Shown here piece after piece: positions 6,035 to 41,800 of a stretch of DNA of 64,000 nucleotides. The notes below the pieces were generated by a model that saw only the letters and a program-made list of their open reading frames with translations, made no database searches and was not told where the DNA came from. Source of the DNA: Tetramitus jugosus (taxonomy: Eukaryota > Protista > Heterolobosea); assembly GCA_937625935.1 (NCBI GenBank), contig OW569355.1, forward strand, positions 496,001-560,000, read 5' to 3'. Within the stretch, counting starts at the first letter, position 1, and every line of letters starts with the position of its first letter. The position numbers and the translations under genes are program-made.

Positions 6035-7741
6035 ATGGACAACACTGGAGCCAATCATCAGACATCTCTCCCAAACTATTTCGTCTTTTCACTCAATCGA
6101 GATGACCATGGCTCAGCTGAAGAATGCGACGATGTGCACAACAAGTGCAATGCATTCACGCAACAAGTTAGGTCCTTTTTCCAATTACCTGCCAGTGACA
6201 AGCAATCGACAACAGATGTCAGTGAAAACAATAGTGGATATTTTATGAATACGATGGCCAATAAGCAACAATTCCAGTTTCGTATGAATCGAACAAACTT
6301 TTGTTACGGAGAGCAGAATAGCAAGAATTATGTATTTAGTGAGGCTTCCACTGCTGCATTTAATGCTTGTTTATCATTCTGTAAAAAGTACTTGTTGGAA
6401 TGGCTAGGGAGTCTGGAATGTTACTTAAAGGACAAACAATTGGACATTGTGATTGTCAAGGGACTTGAAGTGGCATTGAATCAGGGCGAGAACTATTGGC
6501 AACGATTCTCAGTGTTACTTGCGACCGAGTATTTGAATACTGTTTCAAGTGAGTCTTGTGCCGACATGGTGCAGGATAATTGCCCTGCGCATACGGATGC
6601 TGGAATCGTGACTCTGTGTATCGCACCAGAAGAAGGGTTACAATTGTACGATGAGGAAACAAGATCATGGATCGATGTAAGTGGACCAGATAAGATGGTA
6701 CTATTCTTTGGCGATTCGATGGCTGCACTTACGAATAACGCAGTTCAAGCAGTGAGGCATAAGGTTGTACCAACTCCAACTCACAGATTTTCTGTTGTTT
6801 TCAAACTCAGAATTGATGCTGATATCGTTGGACCACGAAACGAAGCAGATTACAAACTTCTTCAACAGATACAGTCTGATAATGAGAAGAAGTATCGTCA
6901 GGACTCTGACTTTGATCAACATATCCTGGAACAAATATTCTTCTTCTTGCCATATAAGGATCTGTGTAATGTAGAACTTGTCTGTAAGCATTGGCAGATG
7001 ATTGCCTCTTCAAATTTTGTCTGGAGAGCACAATGTATGACAAAATTTGGCACCATTGGCATTAATGTTGTATCCTGGAAACATATATTCAGTCAGAAAT
7101 TGATGACTGCGCCAAGAGATGTAAAATTGAAGAATGTTCTGCCCTCTTTTAAGGGACAGAGTGGAGCATCCTTAAAACTAGTTGTTGTCGGAGATGGAGC
7201 TGTTGGCAAAACTTGTATGTTAGTTTCCTATGCCACTAATATGTTTCCAGATGATTATATCCCTACGGTGTTCGATGAATATTCTACAAATATTGATCTA
7301 GATGGACGAACATATTCATTTAGTCTATGGGACACAGCTGGTCAGCCTGATTACGCAAGGCTCAGACCGCTTTCATATCCAGGCACAAACGTCTTTTTGA
7401 TTCTATTTGATGTGACCTCCAAGGATTCTTTTGACAATGTGAAAAGTCAATGGACTTCAGAACTTGCTCTTCATACAGTTTCTGTGCCATTCATTTTAGT
7501 TGGAACCAAGATTGATCTGAGAGCTACTGCACTCACGAATTGTATCTCATATGAGCAAGGTGTGGAGCTTGCGCAGGAAATACAAGCTGTTGCGTACTTT
7601 GAGATTTCGAGCAAGAATATGGCTGGTGTATCAAATTTGATGGGGTTTGCTGCTCGAGTAGCTGTGCATCACCAATTACAAATACCATTTTGTAGTGTCA
7701 CAGATGAAGTCAGAAAGAATAAGAAATGTATTGTACAGTAA
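6035..7741 (+). CDS. Fusion: 2OG-Fe(II) dioxygenase + F-box + Rho-family GTPase with CaaX
   Basis: HTD...RHKV...RFS (HxD..H..RxS); F-box ILEQIFFFLPYKDLCNVELVCKHW; GDGAVGKT, YIPTVFD, WDTAGQ, RLRPLSY, TKID; C-terminal KKCIVQ. One uninterrupted frame. Confidence 0.85.
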   Translation: MDNTGANHQTSLPNYFVFSLNRDDHGSAEECDDVHNKCNAFTQQVRSFFQLPASDKQSTTDVSENNSGYFMNTMANKQQFQFRMNRTNFCYGEQNSKNYVFSEASTAAFNACLSFCKKYLLEWLGSLECYLKDKQLDIVIVKGLEVALNQGENYWQRFSVLLATEYLNTVSSESCADMVQDNCPAHTDAGIVTLCIAPEEGLQLYDEETRSWIDVSGPDKMVLFFGDSMAALTNNAVQAVRHKVVPTPTHRFSVVFKLRIDADIVGPRNEADYKLLQQIQSDNEKKYRQDSDFDQHILEQIFFFLPYKDLCNVELVCKHWQMIASSNFVWRAQCMTKFGTIGINVVSWKHIFSQKLMTAPRDVKLKNVLPSFKGQSGASLKLVVVGDGAVGKTCMLVSYATNMFPDDYIPTVFDEYSTNIDLDGRTYSFSLWDTAGQPDYARLRPLSYPGTNVFLILFDVTSKDSFDNVKSQWTSELALHTVSVPFILVGTKIDLRATALTNCISYEQGVELAQEIQAVAYFEISSKNMAGVSNLMGFAARVAVHHQLQIPFCSVTDEVRKNKKCIVQ

Positions 7742-8649: not shown

Positions 8650-9999
8650 ATGAGACCAAGCAACACCTCAAAGAGTTCTTCTTCGATTCTCAGTACCCAT
8701 CGTAAGGCTCACTATCACCAGTTTGGAGCTGCGAATCAACTGTCTTTGAGTCATGTCGGTCCTCACAGTGTCTCCTCTCTCAAACAGTTGAATAGTCCCT
8801 CATCATCTAACTCAACGACTAGGCACTCTCATAACTCTTTTACTTCGATGTCTGTAAACAGGAGAAAGAGATCACAATCTCCTGTCCAAATCTCCTCTCC
8901 TGTTCGATCAAGTGTGACTCTGCTCAACATCGGATCATCGAGTCCATTATCTTCTCCCGGTACCTCGCACTTTCAAACGAAGAAGAACAAGTTATCGACT
9001 CTAACCCCCACGAAATCAAGTTCCCCTGCCAATGCGAGGTATCAGACAAAGCATTCAACAAAAAAGAGCTCGAACTCCAAGTTACTATTTGGTGATGCTG
9101 AGTATATCGATGATTCTCGCAATTCGTATGTTGATGAAAGTCCTGTCGATTATAGGCTCTATCAAACTTTGTTCAAAAATAAGAGAAGAATATCAATCTC
9201 GTATGGACTCTTTGACACCCAAGGACATCGACCAAGCATGGAGGACGAATACTTCTTTGTGGAGGATCTGAACTCAATGGCACTTAATCCTACACAACAT
9301 CAAATTCATTGTGCATTTGGAATTTTTGATGGACATTGTGGCAAAGATGCTGCAACTTATTGTAAAGATAACTTATGTGAGCACATATTGAAAGCCCCGA
9401 GTTTTCAAAAGAGCATAGAGAGAGCACTACAAGAAGGGTTTGTATCCTGTGATGAATCGTTGAGGAAGTACTCAATCGATGAAGAGAAGGCTTCTCCGTT
9501 TGCTGGATGCACGGCCAATGTGGCTATTATTCGAGACAATGTCCTTACAGTCGCAAATTGTGGAGATTCCCGGGCAGTATTAGCAAATGGAGGAAGAGCT
9601 GTACCTATGAGTGAAGATCATAAACCCAACCGCCCTGATGAAAAGAAGAGGATAGAGTCTTTGGGTGGAATGGTTATGTTTGGAAGAGTAGGAGGCTTGT
9701 TGGCGGTGTCTCGCGCATTGGGAGATTTTGAGTACAAGACTGATGGAAAACATTTAGTCACTGCCACTCCTGATGTCAAGTCTTTTACCTTGAATAGCAA
9801 TTCAGATTTTGTAATTGTTGCGTGTGACGGACTATGGGATGTTATGTCATCCGAAGAATCAGTCAAATTTGCCTATCAGTGGATGCACGAAACTCACAAT
9901 CTGGACATAGTCTGCGAACGCTTGGTTCATAAAGCTCTAGAACGGAGATCGATGGATAATATTACTTGTATGATTGTTGCTCTTCATGAATTTGAGTAG
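8650..9999 (+). CDS. PP2C (PPM) Ser/Thr phosphatase with Ser-rich N-terminus
   Basis: QGHRPSMED, FDGHCG, ANCGDSRAVL, DHKP, LAVSRALGD, ACDGLWDV, DNIT motifs. Confidence 0.92.
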   Translation: MRPSNTSKSSSSILSTHRKAHYHQFGAANQLSLSHVGPHSVSSLKQLNSPSSSNSTTRHSHNSFTSMSVNRRKRSQSPVQISSPVRSSVTLLNIGSSSPLSSPGTSHFQTKKNKLSTLTPTKSSSPANARYQTKHSTKKSSNSKLLFGDAEYIDDSRNSYVDESPVDYRLYQTLFKNKRRISISYGLFDTQGHRPSMEDEYFFVEDLNSMALNPTQHQIHCAFGIFDGHCGKDAATYCKDNLCEHILKAPSFQKSIERALQEGFVSCDESLRKYSIDEEKASPFAGCTANVAIIRDNVLTVANCGDSRAVLANGGRAVPMSEDHKPNRPDEKKRIESLGGMVMFGRVGGLLAVSRALGDFEYKTDGKHLVTATPDVKSFTLNSNSDFVIVACDGLWDVMSSEESVKFAYQWMHETHNLDIVCERLVHKALERRSMDNITCMIVALHEFE

Positions 10000-10040
10000 A
10001 GTTGGATTGCGAATTTGATTGACCATTTATTGTTTCAGAA

Positions 10041-11630
10041 TCATCTCTCGTGAATACCAATGACGATCGCAGATAATGTAGGTTTCTCGACGTGCATCGA
10101 AAGATCATACGATGAGCCTCTGTGGTTAATTTTTAGGGTGTTTAAGTCCTCAGCTAGATTCTGTCCTCCACTTGTCATCAATGAGGGAAATTTTGTTCGT
10201 GAGGAATCAGATAATAGAGAGTGAATCGATATGTTTTCAATGACTCCAGTGCTTGACAGCACTGGATTTGTCATGTTCATAACTCTCAGACAGGATACGG
10301 GGTTAGAGCTTCCACATCTCATGATACCACAAATGTCACAAGGTAGTGCTGGCCATACATGTCCAGAGGCAGCCACAGCCATGAACAGTGAATTATCTTG
10401 GAAATCCTGTGGGGATGCATCGAAATCAAGCTCGCATTTGACATCACCAGCTGTCAACTCATAGTGGTATGATTTACCAGGGACTAAAAGAAACGGTTCA
10501 ATTGATACAATAGGATCACTCTCCTCTGTTTCCAATGAGTGACCAGCAGGCTTAATGTGCCTCGATCTCTTATTTAAATTCTTTGCCACAGGAATCGATC
10601 CTACCAACAGAGTATTTTTCGGCACGTTTGTATTGGTTACAGATGCAACTGAATCTCCATTCACGTGAATTCCACTGCCAGATGTCTTCCAACTCGTACC
10701 GCTGTTGGATCCGAGGATCGTGACAGAATGATCATAAGAATATCCCTGTTGAGTTTGAAGACCGTTCAACACGGGTGGAAAGTTGACCCACCACGAGGAA
10801 TAAGCAATGATCGATACACTCTGATTATAGATCAACTCTAAAGCAGGTCTATCGAACAGGATATCATAACAAATGAGCAGACCAACTCTGCCAAATTCAG
10901 TCTCAAAAAACACTGGCTTACCCTTGCCAGCATCAAACACTTCTGATTCATAATACAAGTTTGTCTTGTGATACTTGGTCAAGAGTGTTCCATTCGGACT
11001 GAAAGCCACCTGCGTATTGTACTGATACCGCTTGTCAGATGGACAACCCTTGTCCTCACTAGTGCAAAACTGAACATCACCCATATTTAACACAATATAC
11101 ATGCCATATTCGATCGCCAAACAACTCGTCCTTCTCAACACTGCAAAATCCATGGTATCATTTGGATAGGACAAGCAGGGATTCATCACCTCATTCGGAA
11201 TCGATTCCAAAAAGTAATAAATGGTATCTCGATCATACGACGGTCCATACAGTCCATACTCTGGAAAGACAATGAGTCTTGCACCTTGTTCGTAAGCAGG
11301 TTTGATCATTTCGAGCTCAAACATGTCCAATGTTCTCCTCATGATATCCACCGCTTGTGCCTTGGACTTTACAATGTGAATCTTGGAACCGACGAGTAAT
11401 GTTTCGGCAACTGCCACCGTAACTTTTGACTCAGCAGTGCTGAGGTGCAAGTTCTGATGCAGGTGGTCGTGGTCAGTTGTTGGATCATCCAACAATTGAA
11501 TGTTCATATGTTGTCTCTTCAATCGATTGCTGCTGCTGTCATTGTTGTTCTTGGATGGATGAACAAGGTGAGAGACAAGAACGGCAGCGAAACATGCAGC
11601 AAAGATTAACCATGTTGTTATTCCTCTCAT
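10041..11630 (-). CDS. Secreted vanin/biotinidase-like carbon-nitrogen hydrolase
   Basis: Hydrophobic signal peptide; Glu-Lys-Cys triad motifs LIVFPEYG, YHKTNLY, ICYDILF; Cys-rich C-terminal domain. Confidence 0.85.
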   Translation of the reverse strand: MRGITTWLIFAACFAAVLVSHLVHPSKNNNDSSSNRLKRQHMNIQLLDDPTTDHDHLHQNLHLSTAESKVTVAVAETLLVGSKIHIVKSKAQAVDIMRRTLDMFELEMIKPAYEQGARLIVFPEYGLYGPSYDRDTIYYFLESIPNEVMNPCLSYPNDTMDFAVLRRTSCLAIEYGMYIVLNMGDVQFCTSEDKGCPSDKRYQYNTQVAFSPNGTLLTKYHKTNLYYESEVFDAGKGKPVFFETEFGRVGLLICYDILFDRPALELIYNQSVSIIAYSSWWVNFPPVLNGLQTQQGYSYDHSVTILGSNSGTSWKTSGSGIHVNGDSVASVTNTNVPKNTLLVGSIPVAKNLNKRSRHIKPAGHSLETEESDPIVSIEPFLLVPGKSYHYELTAGDVKCELDFDASPQDFQDNSLFMAVAASGHVWPALPCDICGIMRCGSSNPVSCLRVMNMTNPVLSSTGVIENISIHSLLSDSSRTKFPSLMTSGGQNLAEDLNTLKINHRGSSYDLSMHVEKPTLSAIVIGIHER

Positions 11631-11976
11631 TGTGACAAATTGAATTCCAGGGTTGATTGCACGGTTTCGCGAAATGATTTGTTGTTTCTTCTCTAGAGAT
11701 GGAATTCAATGTTTAGGAGTTATTGTCTTATTTTGCCGACGAGATCAAATGTCCTGTTCCAATTTGGTACCAAACAGATTTCTTGAACATCAAATGTCTC
11801 TGCATGACCGATAGGGAAACTGAACAGGAATCAATTTAATAACCCACGCAATGGTCTTCCACCTTCCAAAACTACAATACAATCTCACCAATGATTTCGA
11901 AGGTGAATGGTACCCTCGGCCTCGATGTTCCGTTCTTGGAGACCAATGGTCCTAAATAATTCATCCTCGCATGGCA

Positions 11977-11983
11977 TATAAAA
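11977..11983 (+). promoter_or_regulatory. TATA box upstream of first Hcp-like gene
   Basis: TATAAAA 62 nt before the ATG at 12039; an equivalent AAATAAA sits at 12896-12902 before the second copy. Confidence 0.5.
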
Positions 11984-12038
11984 GCCCACACCCGGCCAAC
12001 AGTTATCTTTCCAATCACTAGAACTTAAAAGCCAATCA

Positions 12039-12584
12039 ATGAACAAACCTATTGCATTACTCTCATACTTCTTGCTACTCGCCCTTTTCTCCTTCTGCCA
12101 TTCTGAATCGAATGCCTTTCTGACACTCAAGGGAAATCGACAAGGGGACATCCAAGGCAGTGTCACACAAAAGGGAAAAGAAGGTCAAATCCAAGTTGTG
12201 GCTTACGACTGGAGTATCGCTTCTCCCATAGATGCTGCTTCTGGTCAAGGGACTGGTAAAATTCAAATTCAACCTCTCAAGATTGTCAAACCAGTGGACA
12301 AATCGTCACCTCTACTTTTGAGTGCACTTGTGCAAGGAGAGACCTTGACCACATTCACTTTGAATTTTTGGACAGCTTCAGCAAGAGGAGTCCAAGAAAA
12401 CTATTACACAATCAAGCTGGTTAATGCAAGGATTATTTCCATTCATCAAGTGAGCCAAGACAATAGAGTGTCACCAACAATCCCATTGAGTGAGGAAGTC
12501 AGTTTCTCGTTCCAGTCTATTCAAGAAATTTGTACCAATGGCAACATCGTGTCACAGGCTAGTACGATCGACCGAACTCAGTGA
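12039..12584 (+). CDS. hcp: Hcp (type VI secretion tube protein) homologue with N-terminal signal peptide, copy 1
   Basis: NAFLTLKG..QGDIQGSVTQKG..G.I.V, SPIDAASG..TGK, KPVDKSSPLL..AL..GE.L, YYTIKL.NA.I.SI and EEVSFSF match the Hcp1 pattern; preceded by MNKPIALLSYFLLLALFSFCHS. Confidence 0.85.
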   Translation: MNKPIALLSYFLLLALFSFCHSESNAFLTLKGNRQGDIQGSVTQKGKEGQIQVVAYDWSIASPIDAASGQGTGKIQIQPLKIVKPVDKSSPLLLSALVQGETLTTFTLNFWTASARGVQENYYTIKLVNARIISIHQVSQDNRVSPTIPLSEEVSFSFQSIQEICTNGNIVSQASTIDRTQ

Positions 12585-12966
12585 TACACTCCAATGTACA
12601 GTAAAAACCGAGGGTGCCCCTCTTGATGTAGGAGAATTATTGTATTGTTTATTCGACCAGCTGGAGTTTGTCACGTAAGATGAGCTTACTACCAACGACT
12701 CGAAACAGACCTAAGTGAGACTGTTGGGCACTTGAGAACTACTTACTATCATCACAGTAACAACTGACAGTCACCCGATAGCAACATGAATGGTAGTATC
12801 CAGTTCCTGAATGACGTACCGAAATCATAAATTTCTCTTTATCGGATGTAGTGTGAATCGCTGCGGAATCCGCAAATAGCTCAGATCAGATCTTGAAATA
12901 AAGGTCAAATCCATTTCAACATTATCTTTCCGATGGTTCTAACCAACAGAAATCAACAAACCGACA

Positions 12967-13497
12967 ATGAACAAGCTGTTTGTATTGCTCTTTCTTCTAG
13001 CTCTCTTCTCTTTCTGCTTTGCTGAACCGAATGCCTTTCTGACACTAAAAGGAGTCAAACAAGGTGACATCCAAGGCAGTGTCACCCAAAGGGGAAAAGA
13101 AGGTCAAATCCAAGTTGTGGCTTATGACTGGAGCATCACTTCTCCAATCGATCCTGCGACGGGCCAAGCGACTGGTAAAATCCAAGTTCAACCCCTCAAG
13201 ATTGTCAAACCAGTGGACAAGTCTACTCCTAAATTACTGACTGCACTAGTACAAGGAGAAGTGTTGAACACTTTCACTTTGAATTTCTGGAGAGCGTCTT
13301 CAACTGGGGCACAACAAATTTATTACACTGTGAAACTGGTCAGTGCTAAGATTGTATCCATCCATCAGATTAGTCTTGACAATAGAGTATCACCAAACAT
13401 CCCATTGAGTGAGGAAGTTACCTTCGTTGCTCAGTCTGTACAAGAAATTTGGGTCGATGGTAACATCGTGTCACAAACGAGTACGACGAGTGCTTAA
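12967..13497 (+). CDS. hcp: Hcp homologue with N-terminal signal peptide, copy 2
   Basis: Tandem paralogue, about 76% identical to copy 1 over the mature region by manual count; signal peptide MNKLFVLLFLLALFSFCFA. Confidence 0.85.
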   Translation: MNKLFVLLFLLALFSFCFAEPNAFLTLKGVKQGDIQGSVTQRGKEGQIQVVAYDWSITSPIDPATGQATGKIQVQPLKIVKPVDKSTPKLLTALVQGEVLNTFTLNFWRASSTGAQQIYYTVKLVSAKIVSIHQISLDNRVSPNIPLSEEVTFVAQSVQEIWVDGNIVSQTSTTSA

Positions 13498-13617
13498 TGT
13501 AGGGATGAACTATTTTGTACAGTAAATAATAGTGTTCGTCTCCAGATCATTGTTCTTTGTTTCCTTGCCAGAAAAGAACCAATTGTTGATGATCATTAAA
13601 TTCTGTCATTCAATGAT

Positions 13618-14364
13618 TCAATGAGCGATATTGGTGAAGGATATCTCTTTTGGTATCCACTGTAGTCCATAACGATGTTCAATTTTGTCTAAATCCCTCT
13701 CCTTTCTTGAGATTTCACCTCTCTCGGGCTTCGATTGGGGTGAGGTTTGAACCTCCGCGGATTGCTGGTCCACATGATCTTCCTCAGATAGTTTGGTGAA
13801 ATAGGCTCTTATCTGTTTGTTCAATCGGTTCCTAAACCTTTGAACTTCCAAAATGTAGGGCTCTTCCTCTTCAATGGAAAAAATGGGTTCAACATACTCA
13901 AACTGCCCTCGACTTGGAGAGGGAGTTGGTTCCTTAACAGAGATCTTCTTCTTCCTTTCTTTACGGGGTTTCTCCCGAAGAAGAAAAGGTTTGGAATGGC
14001 TACCTGTTGACATATTACATCGTTTGCAATTCATACTATTCCTGTGATTCCGGTGACCGTTCCACATGATGGTACAAGTGTGTGGAGGGAGGTTGGAAAC
14101 AGCATGAACTGACAACACTTTTCGCTTTCGTTGTGGAATCAGAGGGCGTTTTTTCGTGTCGTTTTCATTCGACAGGTGATGGAGAAGATGGTCCATAGCT
14201 TCTCTTCTCTTCTTCTCGAGAGAAATCAACGCAGAGAGAGGAGCGTTGTGATTCATACACTTGTTCAAAACACGAAGATCATGATTCTCTCTTCTTACAA
14301 GTTCAGCCTTCACCATAGTCATTGGTGATTTTTGTTTCGGTGAATTGGTGGAAGTTCGTCCCAT
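13618..14364 (-). CDS. Hypothetical basic protein
   Basis: 248-aa ATG-initiated ORF, divergent from the NamZ-like gene; no family recognised. Confidence 0.5.
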   Translation of the reverse strand: MGRTSTNSPKQKSPMTMVKAELVRRENHDLRVLNKCMNHNAPLSALISLEKKRREAMDHLLHHLSNENDTKKRPLIPQRKRKVLSVHAVSNLPPHTCTIMWNGHRNHRNSMNCKRCNMSTGSHSKPFLLREKPRKERKKKISVKEPTPSPSRGQFEYVEPIFSIEEEEPYILEVQRFRNRLNKQIRAYFTKLSEEDHVDQQSAEVQTSPQSKPERGEISRKERDLDKIEHRYGLQWIPKEISFTNIAH

Positions 14365-14491
14365 AACGAGGGTTTCAACTTGACGAGCTTTGTTTTTTCT
14401 TTCCGTACGGAACGTAACGGTTCAGACCAACGGAGTTATTTCAATTGACCGACTTGCCAGAAAAGAAAGAAGGAGCGAAAGAAACAACAAG

Positions 14492-15769
14492 ATGACACGT
14501 TCTGCCCTTTGGTCGATTCTGACCACAGTTCTCATGTTGATGATTGGAACCTCAACATTGAGTGCTCTAAAAGCGAGGGAAAAGCCAATTGTAAAACCGG
14601 GCATCAATGGCGACATTGATCCACTCTTCTCTGGCCATAACATTGGACTCATTACGAATCCCAGTGGTGTCACCTTTAATTTTACAGCTACAATTGATTT
14701 GTTGTTTGCTGAAAAGACAAAGTACCGTCTCGTCTCCCTGTTCAGTCCAGAGCACGGTTTGAGAGGTGACCAACCACCAGGACAGCACACGTCCTCATAC
14801 GTGGATCCCATTACTGGACTGCCAGTATTTTCACTCTACGGTAATAATTTAGCGCCAACAAAGGAGCAAGTGCACAATGTGACAATGCTTGTGTTTGATT
14901 TGCAGGATGTGGGTGTTCGATGTTTTACGTACATGAGCACTCTGGCCAAAAGTTTGAGTGCCGCTGCCTCGTTCAATATTCCCTTTGTAGTTGTCGATCG
15001 TGTCAATCCGATTGGAGCCAGTGATCGCTGTGTACAAGGACCAGTGCTCGACATGGACTTTAAGTCATTTATTGGTATTTGGTCTATTCCATTGCAGCAT
15101 GGAATGACCATGGGAGAGCTTGCACTCATGTTTAATGAAGAGATGAGTATCCATCACCCGAATTTGCACATTTTGAAGATCCAAGGTGATTATTCGAATA
15201 GACTGCCACTGGACAGCTATGCTGTTACCTCGTGGTTACCACCAAGTCCTAATCTACCAACTCTAGAATCAGCATTCCTCTACCCTGGTATGGTTCTATT
15301 CGAGGCATTAGCAAATATATCACTGGGTCGAGGAACAGCCACTCCGTTCCAGATTGTGGGAGCACCCTTCATGGATCCATATGCAATCTTGCATTACCTG
15401 TACGATAAGCTAGTTGTGAATAATCCTGAGCTTGCTCAATTCCTCGATGGTGTAACGTTGGTACCTGCGTTCTGGGTGCCCACCACAGATATTCACACCG
15501 GTGTACAATGCTCGGGAATTCGTGTATTGGTCATCGATAGATCAAAGGTCAATCCAATTGGCTTGTCACTAGTCATTATGAGATCCATTATGGACATCTA
15601 TCCCGCCTCTCAACTCAAGTTTAGTGACAAGGGCTTCAACATTCGAATGGGATATGACGCCGCCACCGAGATGCTCAACAACGTACCTGTCCAGAACATG
15701 TTTTCTGAATGGAAACCTAATCTCGCGAAATTTATGGACAGAAGATCCAAATATCTAATCTACAAATAA
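14492..15769 (+). CDS. namZ: Secreted NamZ/YbbC (DUF1343) exo-beta-N-acetylmuramidase homologue
   Basis: IGLITNPSG, LFSPEHG.RG, DLQDVGVR.FTY, DRVNPIG, HGMTMGELA, PPSPNLP, YPG..LFE, S.GRGT..PF motifs; signal peptide from ATG 14492. Confidence 0.88.
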   Translation: MTRSALWSILTTVLMLMIGTSTLSALKAREKPIVKPGINGDIDPLFSGHNIGLITNPSGVTFNFTATIDLLFAEKTKYRLVSLFSPEHGLRGDQPPGQHTSSYVDPITGLPVFSLYGNNLAPTKEQVHNVTMLVFDLQDVGVRCFTYMSTLAKSLSAAASFNIPFVVVDRVNPIGASDRCVQGPVLDMDFKSFIGIWSIPLQHGMTMGELALMFNEEMSIHHPNLHILKIQGDYSNRLPLDSYAVTSWLPPSPNLPTLESAFLYPGMVLFEALANISLGRGTATPFQIVGAPFMDPYAILHYLYDKLVVNNPELAQFLDGVTLVPAFWVPTTDIHTGVQCSGIRVLVIDRSKVNPIGLSLVIMRSIMDIYPASQLKFSDKGFNIRMGYDAATEMLNNVPVQNMFSEWKPNLAKFMDRRSKYLIYK

Positions 15770-15955
15770 ATGAACACCCCCGAACTTGCTGCACGGTTCA
15801 CTCAGCAGCGTTGTATTCTCATGGGAGAGATCAATTTGGGACTTGAAGTTTTCTCCGAATTCTTATGTGGCGCAAAAACTTTTTTTCGATCCCAAGAACA
15901 ACAGAAAAAACAACAACATCCAGATCAATTAATAATCATCTCTCATTCACATACA

Positions 15956-16729
15956 ATGTCAGAAAAATTTCAATTCGTACGATACAAGAGCGGCAAGAAC
16001 ACATTTGAGATCCTGTGCAACACTGGCACCGTCCTCAAGTACCGCGATGGACAACTTCCGATTGAAAAAGTCCTATTCGCCGACACTGTTTACAAAAACT
16101 TTGGAACGGGAGATCGCGCCAAGGAGGCTGAGCTTTTGGAAACATTTGGCACATCAAACCAACAAGAATGCCTCCAAAAGATTTTAGAAGAAGGTGACTA
16201 CCATTTGTCAACCAAGGAGAGACAAGAGCTCGTGGACAAGAAGAGAAGAGAGATGATCACTTTTGTTCACAAGAACTATACTGATCCGCGCACAAAGGTA
16301 CCTCATCCATTGACTCGTGTCGAGCAAGTGATTCAGGATATGAAACTGAATGTGGATCCATTCAAACCAGCTGAGAAACAAGTTCAAGACATTTACTCCA
16401 AGTTGGTTGAGAAGATTCCACTCAAGAAGACATTGGTGTATGCTCAATTGATTTTGAAGCATCAATTCATTGGATCAGCAATGCCTCTTGCTCACAAGTA
16501 TGGTCAAGTGAGCGGTGAAAAGTATGATCACATTGGTGTTACCATGGATTTGGCTATTGTTCCTGGTGATTATGACGCCTTGGTCAATGATTTGCACAAG
16601 ATGTGCAAGGGTGACTACTCATTGGAGATTATGAGCTCCACTGGTGACAAGCTGAGTGTCAGTGCACCAGACTCTGGTTCCTCCTCTGCATCCTCTTCCA
16701 AGTCCGGTAAGAAGAAGGGCAGAAAATAA
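15956..16729 (+). CDS. SBDS/Sdo1-family ribosome maturation factor
   Basis: RYKSGKNTFEI, ETFGT...ILEEG...LSTKER, DPRTKVPHP..RVE, VDPFKPAEKQV; ATG at 15956 after an A/C-rich leader. Confidence 0.85.
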   Translation: MSEKFQFVRYKSGKNTFEILCNTGTVLKYRDGQLPIEKVLFADTVYKNFGTGDRAKEAELLETFGTSNQQECLQKILEEGDYHLSTKERQELVDKKRREMITFVHKNYTDPRTKVPHPLTRVEQVIQDMKLNVDPFKPAEKQVQDIYSKLVEKIPLKKTLVYAQLILKHQFIGSAMPLAHKYGQVSGEKYDHIGVTMDLAIVPGDYDALVNDLHKMCKGDYSLEIMSSTGDKLSVSAPDSGSSSASSSKSGKKKGRK

Positions 16730-17074
16730 TCGTGCATTCCAATTATTCACACATGTGTGTGTAATGCGCGTGATGCTTGTGCTGATTGAAGCAAACAAAG
16801 TTTCATCACTGACCGCGAACACCACTGCCCCTCATCCAAGCAAGCCATCTCTCTGATAGAACAAACATTTGAGGGTGTTTGATGTGGTTCGTTTTTTTGG
16901 TACTCTTACGAGTGCCTTCATGCAGTGGTTCAAATATCAAAGAGTAAAAATTCCTCTGACTTCTCTCTTTTCCTTTTTTTGCGCCAGATGGTAATCGGAC
17001 ATATTTTTGAATATCGCGACAGGTGTCAGAAACATAAAACAACACGAAGAGAGAACTTCGAAAGAACATAGGCC

Positions 17075-30787: not shown

Positions 30788-31735
30788 ATGATAATCCGCT
30801 CACCAGTTAAAAAGGACAGTAAGGTAGTTAGGAAGCTAACAAAGATTTCCTTCACTGTTGACTCCTATGATTATGAACAATTAAAGGGAATGAAGACAAG
30901 AGCCATGCGGGCGGTCGAAGAAAACTCTATGGACAAAGGGGCCGATATTCTCTTCGGAACAAGAGAGGATCGCAAGGAATACTTTGCCATCATCCAAGGT
31001 CAAGATGAAGAACAAGAAGATAAAATAGCTCTCTTTATTGAAAACTTCTTCCTTTTGAATGAAGTCTTCAACAAAACTGTGGTGAGATCAAAGGTCAGTA
31101 AGATCTTGAGTGAAGGGATTAGCATTCAACAGGTCAAGCTGGAAAACGAAGATCCTGACAATCAGTACATCTCTGGGGAGGTAGCCCCCCAACCAAAATT
31201 TGATGCTGTTGTCTACAAGGAGGCGACTAAGAACAGCCTTTTGGCGAAGAAACGAAGGTTGAAAGAGATTTTCGTGAGTGACAGTGCCCCTTCGGAGCAA
31301 GAAGCAAATATAAATCCACCCCAGAAGAAGCTCAAACCTCAGTTTCCCTTCAACATTGATAGGGGACGTGGGACTAGTTCAATGAGTCATGATAGGCTTG
31401 TGGAGAAATATCAAGAAAGGATAGCTCAGGTGAAGAGTGAACATCGTGCGGAAGTAGCCCAGTTGAGAAATCAGTACAAGCAGCTTATCAAGGAACACCA
31501 AGAGCAGAATAAGGAGAATCAAGTGAAGACCAATCAACTCCGAGCGCAGATCACGGAGTTGACCAATCAACATCAAGCTGAGATCACGGTGTTGACCAAT
31601 CAACACCAAGCGCAGATCACGGAGTTGACCAATCAACACCAATTGAAGATTGACGAGATGATCGAGGAACAATACAAGAAGATTGACAAGCTTACCGAGG
31701 AATATCGCGAGGACCTGAGAAATATGAAGGAATGA
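30788..31735 (+). CDS. Orphan coiled-coil protein with 11-aa tandem repeats
   Basis: ATG 30788, 315 codons, AATAAA shortly after the stop; no family recognised. Confidence 0.55.
   Translation: MIIRSPVKKDSKVVRKLTKISFTVDSYDYEQLKGMKTRAMRAVEENSMDKGADILFGTREDRKEYFAIIQGQDEEQEDKIALFIENFFLLNEVFNKTVVRSKVSKILSEGISIQQVKLENEDPDNQYISGEVAPQPKFDAVVYKEATKNSLLAKKRRLKEIFVSDSAPSEQEANINPPQKKLKPQFPFNIDRGRGTSSMSHDRLVEKYQERIAQVKSEHRAEVAQLRNQYKQLIKEHQEQNKENQVKTNQLRAQITELTNQHQAEITVLTNQHQAQITELTNQHQLKIDEMIEEQYKKIDKLTEEYREDLRNMKE
31528..31642 (+). repeat. About 3.5 copies of a 33-bp coding tandem repeat (TNQHQAQITEL)
   Basis: Units begin GACCAATCAAC at 31528, 31561, 31594 and 31627. Confidence 0.9.
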
Positions 31736-32715: not shown

Positions 32716-33727
32716 TTTTGTTGATTGAATTTTTTTTTTTTTTTTTTTCCATACAACATTTGTTGCCACTTTATTCTATACCCTACTGTGAGTCATGATT
32801 CCGCTCGGCACCGTTAGGTGACGAGCAGTGTTTCACTCCTCTGCGCGACAGAGTTAATATATATCTTGTATAGTGCCTTGATGCACGACCTTTTGATTGA
32901 ATCAATGATTCTCCTTATCTTTTTCTCTGCTTCAACTCTCTTCTTACCAGAGAGCTTCATTTCGTCCAGGAGTTCATCCTTGAAGTCTCCTTCCTTTCCC
33001 ATCAGTCCCTCCAGTGTTCCTTCAGGCGTTCGATTTACATTTCGTGGTTGTATCTTTCCACTCTCGTACAGAACATCCTCGAACCATATAGGGGCCTTGA
33101 CAGAGTCCGGCAGACTCAACTTGTCCAGCTTCACCTTCAGCTCTTCAACCAACTTGCTTCTTGCAATTCTTGCGAGTTCGCACTCCACGAGTAGATGCAC
33201 AATGGTTTCTGGAGCTTTGCAACAATGTGCGCAAGTGACATCGAACAGGGGATTGTACAACTGTCGAATGACAGTCCGTGTGTGGAGAGTCCCACTTCTC
33301 ACCTGATGATAGAACCAAAGTTCCTTTCTTTCCAGACCAAATGGGCACTTGAGAAAGTTATTCCTCTCCTTGTCTTGCTGCAATGCAGCTTCCAACCACC
33401 ATCCCGCATGTTTTGAGATAGTATCACTCCTACTCATTGAGAAGTGATCAGTCAGTTCCTTCCTGATGTTATCCCCAACAAGCGCCCTACCACTGACAGA
33501 CACTGAGACCTTTTGCTGCCCGGTTCTCTGAGCAAACCGCTTTTCATCGCACGGTTTACCAAGCAGTTCCAAGTAAGCACGAATCCTCATGTACTTTTTT
33601 TGGCCAATACCTGACATCTTAAACCTTGACTTCGCTTCTTTGTAGGGCATTGTCATGATACCATCATCATCAAAAAGCTGATGGTTTTTAACAACCCCAC
33701 AGCGCCGGAGTATTTTGTTGATTGAAT
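32716..33727 (-). mobile_element. 5'-truncated non-LTR retrotransposon (ORF2 C-terminus) with poly(A) and 15-bp TSD
   Basis: TSD TTTTGTTGATTGAAT at 32716-32730 and 33713-33727; T19 at 32730-32748 (poly(A) on minus); AATAAA on minus at 32775-32770; open frame with CAHC...ETIVHLLVEC, a zf-RVT-type CCHC motif. Confidence 0.88.
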
Positions 33728-33755
33728 ATATATAATTTGAGAGGGGTAATATCAA

Positions 33756-33829
33756 GCAGGCGTGGCTCAATTGGATAGAGTATCGGCCTACGGAGCCGGG
33801 GGTTGCGGGTTCGAGTCCCGCCGTCTGTA
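33756..33829 (+). tRNA. tRNA-Arg (anticodon ACG), intronless
   Basis: Cloverleaf: GCAGGCG/CGTCTGT acceptor stem, GCTC/GAGT D stem, TCGGC-CTACGGA-GCCGG anticodon arm, GCGGG-TTCGAGT-CCCGC T arm; TATA-like ATATATATAA at about -30. Confidence 0.95.
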
Positions 33830-33836
33830 ACATCAC

Positions 33837-38879: not shown

Positions 38880-41800
38880 CTACAATTTTTCGGCAAGATA
38901 CCTTTCGAGTTCACCTACTCGCTTCTGGAACGTGCTCAAGTATTGCGTCAGGTGATCTTTCTCCTTACCTTTTGCGGCTCGTTCAAGCACAAAGGAAGCT
39001 TGTGACAGTGGAGCACAGGCTAGTTGTGCCGAAGAGCCCTTAATGGAGTGAGCAAACATATTTAACGAACTCCAGTTCTCTTCATCGATGTATTGCGCAA
39101 AATCTATCACATCTCGCTTTCCTTCTTCCAGCAACTCCCCCAAAAGTTCTCGAGTAAAATTGATATCACCTCCAGAGAGCTCCAAAGCTTGATCGATATC
39201 GACACAATCTGCATGATTCATACTCAACTCAACACAGTCCTCCACGGCAGCTAAGAATGGTCTTGAGGATATTGGAACATGAACTGTCAGGTCACAGATT
39301 TCATTTAAGCCGGCGCCCGAGTTAAATATCAGACCAAGAACTGCAGTGTAGTGCTTTGTGACCAAAGATTGCTCATTCTGCCTCAACTCACGAATAAATT
39401 CGTGCACCTTTTCAATATCACTATCAGTCACGATTGCAACATTATATTTAACCTGTGAATTTTTGATCTCGCTGGCAGTGCTAGACAATGAATGACTGAC
39501 ACCAACCTCGAAGCCAAATTTGCGCAGGAAACTAGAGAGTTGATTCTCGGAAGACGACTCCATGTCAATCACCATCACACCCACTGCTCTCACCTTGGCA
39601 ACCACATCAAAATCATCTGTTAGAACTTCACCGCTTCCAGTTGCTTTAGATGACACATCAGCTGCTTGATTTGACGTGCTCTCTGGAGTGGTTTCCTGGG
39701 TCTGTGGTTTTTCTATGAGACCTGCACTCCATAAGACACGATTCGATTGCATAGTGTTTGTCAGAATGTACAAGTTGGGCACATACTGAACAAAACATTT
39801 GAACAACGGACCAGCAATATAATCAATAAAATTGACCTGCATTTGAGCTTTGTGCAAGCTGTTTCGGTCCATGAGAGGTGAGATAGCCAATCCTTGCGAT
39901 CGCTCCTCATCTCCCTGTGCCAAAAACTCTTCAATAAGCATGTGGGCCCATGCCTGAGCGACAGGGAATGGACGTATCGCATTCGATACATCAGCACACT
40001 TCAGTATGATATTAATGACTTGTTGCTTATCGTCCTTACTCTCCTTGGAAAGCGGCCCGGTTTGGATACGTGTCTGAAACTTTGTCAGTATCTCGAAATG
40101 ATGAGCCATGTCAGTGGCTAGAATCGTGTTAATGATTGTTCGTCTAAACTCCCGATACGTCTCAGAGTCCAAATTCTCTACAATGTTACAATCAGGTTCC
40201 TTCATTAGCCTGAATGCAACATAACAGTGATGATTCTCCAGGACGCTGATATCATTGTACAGGAGTGCCAGTGGAGTCTTGGCATTGACTTGATAATTGT
40301 TGTTCAAGCCTGGATGATCGAGATCGTGACACAGGGCAGATACCATGATGCACAACTTTTCCAACGAATTTAAGAAATTGCCAACCTTTTCAATACACAG
40401 AGAACTGTACACAAATTGAGTCACATCAATCGCATGAGTCATATTGTGATAAGGATTACTCTTGTAATGTTGTTGGAGTCGATTGAGAAAGTTCATGAGC
40501 TTTGCGGGATCAATGGAAAAGTCTGACACGAGTCCCAACGATTGAAACATGTATGCGGCATTTCTGAGCAACTCGTCTGTTTGATACGCAAATACATCAA
40601 ACTCAAATGAATCTAGTGTCGGTATGGACCTTGTGAGAAGAATGTGTTGCTCTGTCGATGTGCTTTCAACCGACGTGTTTTGACTCTCATTGAAATGAAC
40701 ACCCTTCTTGGTTGGGGACTGACTCTCTGCTGAGGAAGGAGCCAACGGAGGAGGCAACAGAGGTGGTTCTTGTGATTGACTACTCCTTCGAATGTGATGA
40801 GCATTTTCCTCATCTTCACGCATAAATTCACTCTGCAGCCACTTGCGTGTCGTTTCATCAATCGTCTGCTTCTCCAACAATAGAGAGAACGCTGGGCGAT
40901 ACAAGTCTCTGGAACCGAGACTCTTTAGAATCGCAACCAGTGCACCCTTGTACTGCTCCACTGAATAACTACCTTCCATGAGATCACCAATGGTTTTCAT
41001 CACGACTTGCATTGGTGTTTCAATTGTATCGGATATTTGTGATTTAATCTGTTGGAGCTCCTTCTCTTGAGCTTCCACTTGTTTTGAGAGCCGATTCCGG
41101 TTCTCTCTCTCCTTTTTGAGCATCTCCTGGTACATGGTTTCCTTCCTTCGTCTCAATCGATCATCGAGACACATTTCTACTCTGCGTTTCAACATTTCGA
41201 ACCGTATGGGTTTTTGTAAGAAATCTTCTGCTCCACTTTGAAAGCATTGGGCAATTGTATCAGGGTCCTCTGTCGATGAAATCACTATAAGATGATGATG
41301 ATGAAGTGATAGATGAGATGCATGAGTCAAAAATACAATTCTCTCAAAAACACAATGAAAATGAACAAAAAGGCAGCAAAACAAAGACACATACTGATAA
41401 TGGGTATATCTTTTGCATAAGCACTCTTAAATATTCTCAATAGTTCTAATCCATCCATTTCTGGCATCAGAACATCGACGAGCACCAAGCTCACACTATT
41501 GTCTTCACCCAGTAGCTCTAGAGCTTTTTTGCCGCCATCCACCGTAGTTACTAAAAAAATCAAATGAATATGTGAGTACACCAATCATACAACAGCAACA
41601 ACATGCTACAATAAACAATAATTGCATTAAAAAAATCATCATCAATTGTTGTGCACTTACCCTTAAAATTTAATTTTTCGAGCATCCGACTCATCACTGT
41701 CCTAGAAATATTGTCATCATCGACGACCAGTACATGTTTTTCTTCTTGTTGTTCTTCGGCTTCCATCGATCGTATAATATCAGTGACACTACCTCTGTGT

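Follow-up and report, generated by a model that had tools for sequence, protein, structure and literature searches.

Two tandem Hcp-fold genes with predicted signal peptides in a heterolobosean amoeba

The described systems closest to the genes reported here are Hcp/TssD, the tube protein of the T6SS, and Dae, the T6SS amidase effectors domesticated by ticks and other eukaryotes (available text of bioRxiv 10.1101/2020.04.10.036376). According to the accessible part of PMC13323088, Hcp purified alone elutes as a hexamer, and in Hcp3 each subunit meets its neighbour through contacts of strands 2 and 9 with the neighbour's helix and strand 6. Tube polymerisation requires a tip complex, and in most tail tubes one ring touches the next mainly through the loop that joins strands 2 and 3 (available portion of PMC8718954). 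Cargo is bound via permissive lumen surfaces rather than fixed motifs, and D26, K50, K88 and D119 of P. aeruginosa Hcp1 (1y12) are named as stacking and ring residues (accessible text of bioRxiv 10.64898/2026.06.15.732508). A third point of comparison is an informal group, the signal-bearing orphan Hcps of prokaryotes, for which no description was found in the open-access literature (subscription papers lay mostly outside the search).

The stretch of DNA that we analysed (the window; 64,000 nucleotides) carries two genes whose products share the fold of Hcp/TssD (4hkh, 6a2v, 5mxn, 3he1, 5urw), score above the curated cut-offs for this family, and also keep its stacking loop and helix region. 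They differ from Hcp/TssD in being eukaryotic, in bearing a predicted signal peptide, in having no T6SS genes in the window, and in replacing R72, H74, H55, W160, D171, and W173. The Hcp of a working T6SS is leaderless and exported by the machine, whereas each amoeba copy bears a leader as predicted by a hydropathy rule. As in the signal-bearing prokaryotic orphan Hcps, the leader sits directly on the Hcp domain and no T6SS neighbours were found (in the window and in the six prokaryotic loci scanned, respectively), but the prokaryotic proteins keep RxH and mostly the C-terminal D/W, which the amoeba copies do not, and the planctomycete members, unlike the amoeba copies, add a tail that we take to be dockerin-like. 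Dae resembles the amoeba Hcps in that a T6SS-related bacterial gene occurs in a eukaryote without a secretion apparatus and encodes a predicted signal peptide (available text of bioRxiv 10.1101/2020.04.10.036376), and by this analogy would be their closest precedent. Dae is, however, an enzyme that is antibacterial without the machine, whereas Hcp has a structural, ring-forming role and lacks a catalytic site, and the peptidoglycan amidase domain of Dae is absent from the amoeba copies, in which PF05638 was the sole match. Score and fold place the amoeba proteins in the Hcp family, and the features tested set them apart from the T6SS. The open-access literature, including the available text of PMC3482391 and PMC2660368, yielded no report of a eukaryotic Hcp; supplements to genome papers may list such genes.

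Gene pair, fold and predicted leaders

Two tandem, uninterrupted Hcp reading frames had been proposed in a first-pass annotation made from the sequence alone, and both are present, encoding proteins of 181 and 176 aa. The features of the pair are as follows.

12039..12584, + strand: Hcp copy 1 (P0001), 181 aa, intact ORF, no intron; PF05638 and TIGR03344 matches, AF2 model, Z 22.1 to 4hkh, contig in run X9
12967..13497, + strand: Hcp copy 2 (P0002), 176 aa, intact ORF, no intron; PF05638 and TIGR03344 matches, AF2 model, Foldseek match, contig in run X4
12039..12104, + strand: predicted signal peptide of copy 1, about 22 aa, hydropathy 2.7, putative cleavage after C-H-S
12967..13023, + strand: predicted signal peptide of copy 2, about 19 aa, hydropathy 3.4, putative cleavage after C-F-A
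12595..12605, + strand: 11-base motif just past the stop of copy 1, from the alignment of the copies
13516..13526, + strand: same 11-base motif past the stop of copy 2, from the alignment of the copies

Both genes encode true Hcp-fold proteins. Against PF05638 (T6SS_HCP; cut-off 23.5 bits), copy 1 scored 109.5 bits (E-value 1.8e-31) and copy 2 scored 99.1 bits (E-value 3e-28); the corresponding scores against TIGR03344 (NCBIfam TssD; cut-off 58.9 bits) were 117.9 and 110.5 bits, and neither copy matched another family in the Pfam/NCBIfam profile search. The AF2 model of copy 1, built from a 114-row alignment, had a pLDDT of 90.5 and a pTM of 0.82, and the model of copy 2, built from a 15-row alignment, had a pLDDT of 81.3. 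Both predicted models contain the beta-sandwich plus single helix of Hcp. The copy 1 model aligned to 4hkh with a Z-score of 22.1 (149 residues, rmsd 1.7 A) and to 5mxn, the V. cholerae tube subunit, with a Z-score of 20.8 (159 residues, rmsd 2.3), and the copy 2 model matched 4hkh with a Foldseek E-value of 3.6e-15 and an rmsd of 1.9. The earlier assignment of both copies to Hcp is thus borne out by the curated cut-offs and by the modelled fold.

Signal peptides were predicted by a hydropathy rule, the best 9-residue Kyte-Doolittle mean, and not by SignalP. By this rule, each copy has a hydrophobic leader of ~19–22 aa, with means of 2.7 and 3.4, where a cleavable-looking signal peptide had been described. 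In both copies, K at position 3 is followed by a hydrophobic stretch and then by a small-residue site (C-H-S before E in copy 1, C-F-A before E in copy 2). In the predicted model of copy 1, the structural match to Hcp covers residues 23–180, its start lying directly after the leader. A sequence scan found no N-glycosylation sequon, GPI-like tail or anchor in either copy. Judged from sequence, the predicted signal peptides would likely route both Hcps into the secretory pathway, with cleavage and secretion to follow.

We compared the copies with their relatives at 60 positions whose residue is shared by 70% or more of 112 relatives. At 42 of these, both amoeba copies keep the conserved residue, and the kept elements include the D-x-x-x-G-x-x-T-G-K loop and the K-x-x-D-K-S-x-P-x-L helix region. 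The other 18 are changed in at least one copy; among them (copy-2 numbering) are H55W, R72I, H74V/I, Y155A/F, W160E, D171T/A, and W173T, at positions where even the signal-bearing prokaryotic relatives retain the conserved residue. Two of these alterations had been noted at first pass and hold in the 114-row alignment: in the RxH after TGK, R (83% of relatives) and H (94%) have become I and V/I, and in the C-terminal motif, D (88%) has become T/A and W (83%) has become T. H55, R72, H74, D171, and W173, all changed in the amoeba copies, are kept in 71–92% of 38 leader-bearing relatives. H55, D171, and W173 appear to map to the second and last strands, which in Hcp3 contact the neighbouring subunit, and the ring itself could therefore be altered; we speculate that, where subunits meet, the Trp gained at 55 could make up for the Trp lost at 173.

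The mature parts of the two copies, said to differ at about 37 of 155 residues, differ at 36 (119 of 155 identical), without gaps. Duplication of a domesticated gene had also been proposed, and a lack of transcription with a dN/dS near 1 named as evidence against it; the dN/dS between the copies is 0.21 (bootstrap 0.14–0.33), with a dS of 0.69 and a dN of 0.14, which indicates purifying selection and agrees with the proposal. The 11-base motif occurs twice in the window, compared to 0.03 matches expected by chance, and is likely to be a duplication relic or a 3' processing signal. At least eight codons of copy 1 vary among strains (from 40 of 267 difference rows), four of them synonymously and four with a change of amino acid. 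At position 165 of copy 1, the window strain has Cys, and runs X4 and X9, like copy 2, have the conserved Trp. The sole relative above ~53% identity, among the best 120 of 318 and the best 150 of 3683 matches, is P0003, a 761-base ENA contig that is copy 1-like to residue 45 and copy 2-like from residue 61. This switch lies where the two genes are most alike, which points to an assembly chimera or a natural recombinant.

Host genome and independent samples

The actin encoded in the window is 97% identical to those of Naegleria fowleri and N. lovaniensis and 96% identical to that of N. gruberi, and no named actin matched it exactly; on this actin comparison, the host is a heterolobosean near Naegleria. 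Pfam matches identify the neighbours of the Hcp genes as eukaryotic genes for PP2C, a vanin-like nitrilase, SBDS, and an F-box protein, together with a NamZ gene, and, elsewhere in the window, a Ras-family GTPase, CFAP58, VAMP, and Pet127. A Pfam scan of 35 window ORFs gave Hcp as the only T6SS family, as the first-pass annotation had it, and found no sheath, baseplate, VgrG/PAAR or membrane-complex family. The base composition and codon use of both copies match those of the host: the Hcp genes have a GC of 0.43 and a GC3 of 0.42, compared to host medians of 0.43 and 0.44, and their codon fits of 0.081 and 0.038 lie between the lowest and highest values for 34 window ORFs (−0.004 and 0.166), whereas six of eight bacterial hcp genes fall below the host range.

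Several other features of the window were recorded. A TATA-like sequence lies at 11977–11984 (+ strand), ~60 bases upstream of copy 1, and copy 2 has an AT-rich upstream counterpart. The NamZ exo-beta-N-acetylmuramidase gene (14492–15769, + strand; PF07075 and PF20732), 1 kb downstream of copy 2, encodes a bacterial-type peptidoglycan hydrolase with a hydrophobic leader, has contigs in all three RNA runs described below, and is possibly another acquired digestive gene. One ORF (6035–7741, + strand) joins a 2OG-Fe(II) oxygenase, an F-box, and a Rho/Ras-family GTPase domain in a single frame, and another (38880–41195, − strand) encodes a cyclic nucleotide phosphodiesterase with a weak C-terminal Hpt phosphotransfer domain. 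The lowest codon fits in the window belong to two ORFs without a Pfam match, at 32814–33833 (− strand) and 30788–31735 (+ strand); the former has a C-x-x-C...H...C motif, which we take to recall retroelement ORFs.

Among the matches listed, the Hcp stretch is present wholly or partly in 20 runs from 14 studies. We compared cover in four of these runs: X4, from groundwater DNA, and the RNA runs X9 (soil), X11, and X15 (oligo-dT). In run X4, 30 of 30 bins of 9500–16800 were covered, including both Hcp genes and their intergenic flanks, at depths like those of the neighbours; its contigs differ from the window at 7 of 402 bases over copy 1 and at 16 of 432 bases over copy 2 (13104–13535). Run X9 has one contig at 12033–12865, taking in copy 1 with 6 bases ahead of its ATG and 281 bases beyond its stop, which is consistent with transcription of copy 1; contigs cannot prove transcription. 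Within the Hcp pair, run X11 touches only 12562–12768 and run X15 neither copy. Copy 2, the intergenic bin 11696–11939, and the ORF at 13618–14364 were without cover in the three RNA runs, a pattern that fits an RNA origin of the copy 1 contig and is not proof that copy 2 is silent. No single record in the four runs spans the whole region, and the X4 contig across the gap between the vanin-like gene and copy 1 has just 10 and 28 letters within the two ORFs (bridging rule: 31). Long-range linkage thus rests on the assembly, the tiling, and composition.

Prokaryotic relatives and the origin of the genes

Apart from P0003, the best matches are 44–53% identical to the amoeba Hcps and look prokaryotic, and most of those listed start M-A-L-N-A-Y, without a leader. 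These relatives agree with the bacterial origin proposed at first pass, from which a transfer would follow. No other eukaryotic Hcp occurs among the named matches listed, from a collection that includes Naegleria and Willaertia proteins; a three-sequence alignment scan of metagenome contigs found no close relative, with near-full-length matches in 15 loci at 33–47% identity, and Atlas look-ups returned bacterial Hcp clusters only.

Leader-bearing Hcps made up 10 of 85 ORFs in 80 genome loci, 12 of 119 among the database matches listed, and 64 of 114 full single-domain representative matches, the last fraction being inflated by a query that included the leader. Those identified are as follows.

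Signal-bearing Hcps of Planctomycetota (nine): L002, L007, L008, L010, L035, L050, L059, L069, L080
Signal-bearing Hcp of Acidobacteriota (one): L031
Further signal-bearing Hcps: P0026, P0027, P0029, P0055, P0068, P0077, P0111

Eleven signal-bearing proteins in one alignment (A4) are 37–50% identical to the amoeba Hcps. A further signal-bearing Hcp, P0184, comes from a Hodarchaeales (Asgard) archaeal MAG, and other matches have similar long leaders. The leader junction of P0026 (FA:ERNAYL, with the colon at the junction) resembles that of the amoeba (FA:EPNAFL), and the A:E-x-N-A-Y/F-L pattern is found again in P0026, P0029, and P0044 and, in similar forms, in P0077 and P0205; this likeness is a short sequence signal and possibly convergent.

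T6SS genes flank hcp in three of 23 loci (L027, L038, and L044; ~3 kb on either side scanned) and in none of the six leader-bearing loci scanned over ~3 kb, which include five planctomycete loci; signal-bearing Hcps lacking T6SS neighbours thus occur in both Planctomycetota and Acidobacteriota. VipB and TssF were found in none of five genomes (four leader-bearing carriers and L077; MAGs of unstated completeness), and VgrG in none of five leader-bearing carriers (incomplete MAGs); the E. coli control was positive in these searches. These leader-bearing Hcps without T6SS genes suggest that a secreted, T6SS-independent Hcp likely already exists in prokaryotes. All nine planctomycete proteins end in a tail, D-x-x-G-D-G-x-V-N-L-L-D, which is presumably dockerin-like and had no Pfam match at an E-value of 1e-4 in the three proteins scanned. 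Other relatives (P0136–P0142, P0153, P0164, P0250, P0278, and P0281) are ~1050–1540 aa long with ~5–6 tandem Hcp domains, many with an N-terminal export motif that we take to be of the planctomycete type, and one such chain might close a whole ring. In eight Bacteroidota loci (L001, L003, L009, L030, L037, L040, L066, and L077), a leaderless hcp stands alone among housekeeping genes.

The first-pass annotation had read the leader as a eukaryotic re-routing of Hcp and had named leaders on the closest bacterial homologues as evidence against this. The absence of leaders from these homologues largely did not hold, as three of the four best non-self matches (P0026, P0027, and P0029) carry a predicted signal peptide, a rank inflated by the leader of the query. 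The leader on the amoeba Hcps stands; its status as a eukaryotic addition is weakened, because leader-bearing Hcps outside T6SS clusters are common among the prokaryotic relatives.

Trees were built from the Hcp core without leaders, leaving out P0016, P0017, P0018, P0025, cores shorter than 130 aa, duplicates, and multi-domain matches, and they differ in the sister group of the amoeba pair. The pair grouped with leader-bearing P0055/P0068/P0111 at 96/82 in a careful 71-row tree and at 85 in a 215-row FastTree. In a 185-row FastTree, it fell in a mostly leader-bearing group of 34 rows (support 90) with its sister unresolved, one of the two nearest rows being leader-bearing, and in a careful 60-row tree it had another, weak sister at 90/68, with two of three rows leader-bearing in a set enriched for signal-bearing rows. 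The firm grouping with P0055/P0068/P0111 was thus lost under denser sampling, in the 60-row trees, and the bootstrap settled in neither. Signal-bearing prokaryotic Hcps form several clades rather than one in the 215- and 185-row trees.

We consider it somewhat probable that the donor already had a signal-bearing Hcp outside the T6SS. Rather less probable, but still a serious contender, is transfer of a leaderless T6SS or orphan Hcp followed by gain of the signal peptide in the amoeba, an alternative that concerns origin only and fits either function considered below. Most close relatives lack a leader (75 of 85 ORFs and 107 of 119 matches listed), an AU test did not reject a clade of the amoeba pair with five leaderless Bacteroidota-type Hcps (p = 0.134), and leader status changes at least 7, 8 or 25 times across three trees, which indicates that leaders are easily gained and counts for a leaderless donor. 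Set against this are the nearest tree groups, which are wholly or partly signal-bearing (three of three at 96/82, one of two, and two of three at 90/68), and the recurrent junction described above. The genes would have a still different origin as a recent, near-neutral passenger or as an assembly chimera with bacterial DNA. The lack of a spanning record in the four runs, the lack of a named relative from another eukaryote among the matches listed, and the strain variants that alter amino acids are in keeping with this; a dN/dS of 0.21 at a dS of 0.69, host-like codon use, the independent groundwater sample in which both genes and their intergenic flanks were recovered at neighbour-like depths, the copy 1 contig from soil RNA, and the absence of any relative above ~53% identity besides the mosaic P0003 among the matches listed all speak against it. 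A passenger or artefactual insert is accordingly unlikely, and markedly so.

Possible functions of the amoeba Hcps

In the reading that we prefer, at a rough probability of 0.42, an acquired and duplicated Hcp pair would act as secreted or vacuolar free rings that form a binding scaffold, with no injection machine. On the sequences and models, the amoeba likely acquired an Hcp from a bacterium that probably carried a signal-bearing Hcp outside the T6SS, duplicated the gene in tandem, and kept the pair under purifying selection. The predicted signal peptides would send the proteins into the secretory pathway, and the Hcps would likely self-assemble into free hexameric rings, each lumen binding a ligand, to serve, extracellularly or in the food vacuole, as a scaffold for binding or carriage rather than as an injection tube. 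Tube growth would be little or none, because the window encodes neither tip nor baseplate and the copies depart from the family at several conserved residues.

The main rival, which we regard as doubtful but worth weighing, is that the secreted Hcps stack into tubes or lattices as a structural element of a cell coat, cyst wall or extrusome. The presumed dockerin-like tails of the nine planctomycete signal-bearing Hcps and the several large proteins with 5–6 Hcp repeats suggest extracellular structural use among the relatives. Hcp polymerisation normally needs a tip complex, however (available portion of PMC8718954), and none is encoded in the window. The amoeba copies also have no anchor, GPI-like tail or N-glycosylation sequon, and the loop-side R72 and H74 and the conserved C-terminal residues are changed, all of which counts against such a structure. 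Heteroloboseans eat bacteria, and the Hcps could instead be decoys that soak up the T6SS effectors of ingested prey. Hcp lumens do bind varied effectors via permissive surfaces (accessible text of bioRxiv 10.64898/2026.06.15.732508), but effectors travel inside the tube of the attacker to the cytosol, whereas a signal peptide would place the amoeba Hcps in the lumen or outside the cell. Most of the closest relatives examined, moreover, lie outside T6SS clusters (T6SS neighbours in three of 23 loci), and a decoy role is improbable, the least likely of those proposed.

More broadly, we propose, tentatively and at rather less than even odds, that these are the first eukaryotic Hcps, and that the amoeba secretes self-assembling rings or tubes with a remodelled interface, derived from widespread, undescribed, Sec-exported and T6SS-independent Hcps of bacteria and archaea. 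If so, bacteria, archaea and eukaryotes alike would have put the tail-tube fold to a second use, as a component for building outside the cell. The amoeba genes were found in a single lineage. That a eukaryote keeps an Hcp under selection was not to be expected, and it points to a broader class that has gone unrecognised. Hcp is in use as a hallmark of the T6SS and is taken as leaderless, but an hcp match alone does not indicate a T6SS, and the many leader-bearing prokaryotic Hcps in genomes in which no sheath, baseplate or spike gene was found suggest an unrecognised T6SS-independent function. A selected and apparently expressed amoeba pair would extend T6SS-to-eukaryote transfers from enzymes, as in Dae, to a structural part, and would offer a small, testable handle on T6SS-independent Hcp function.
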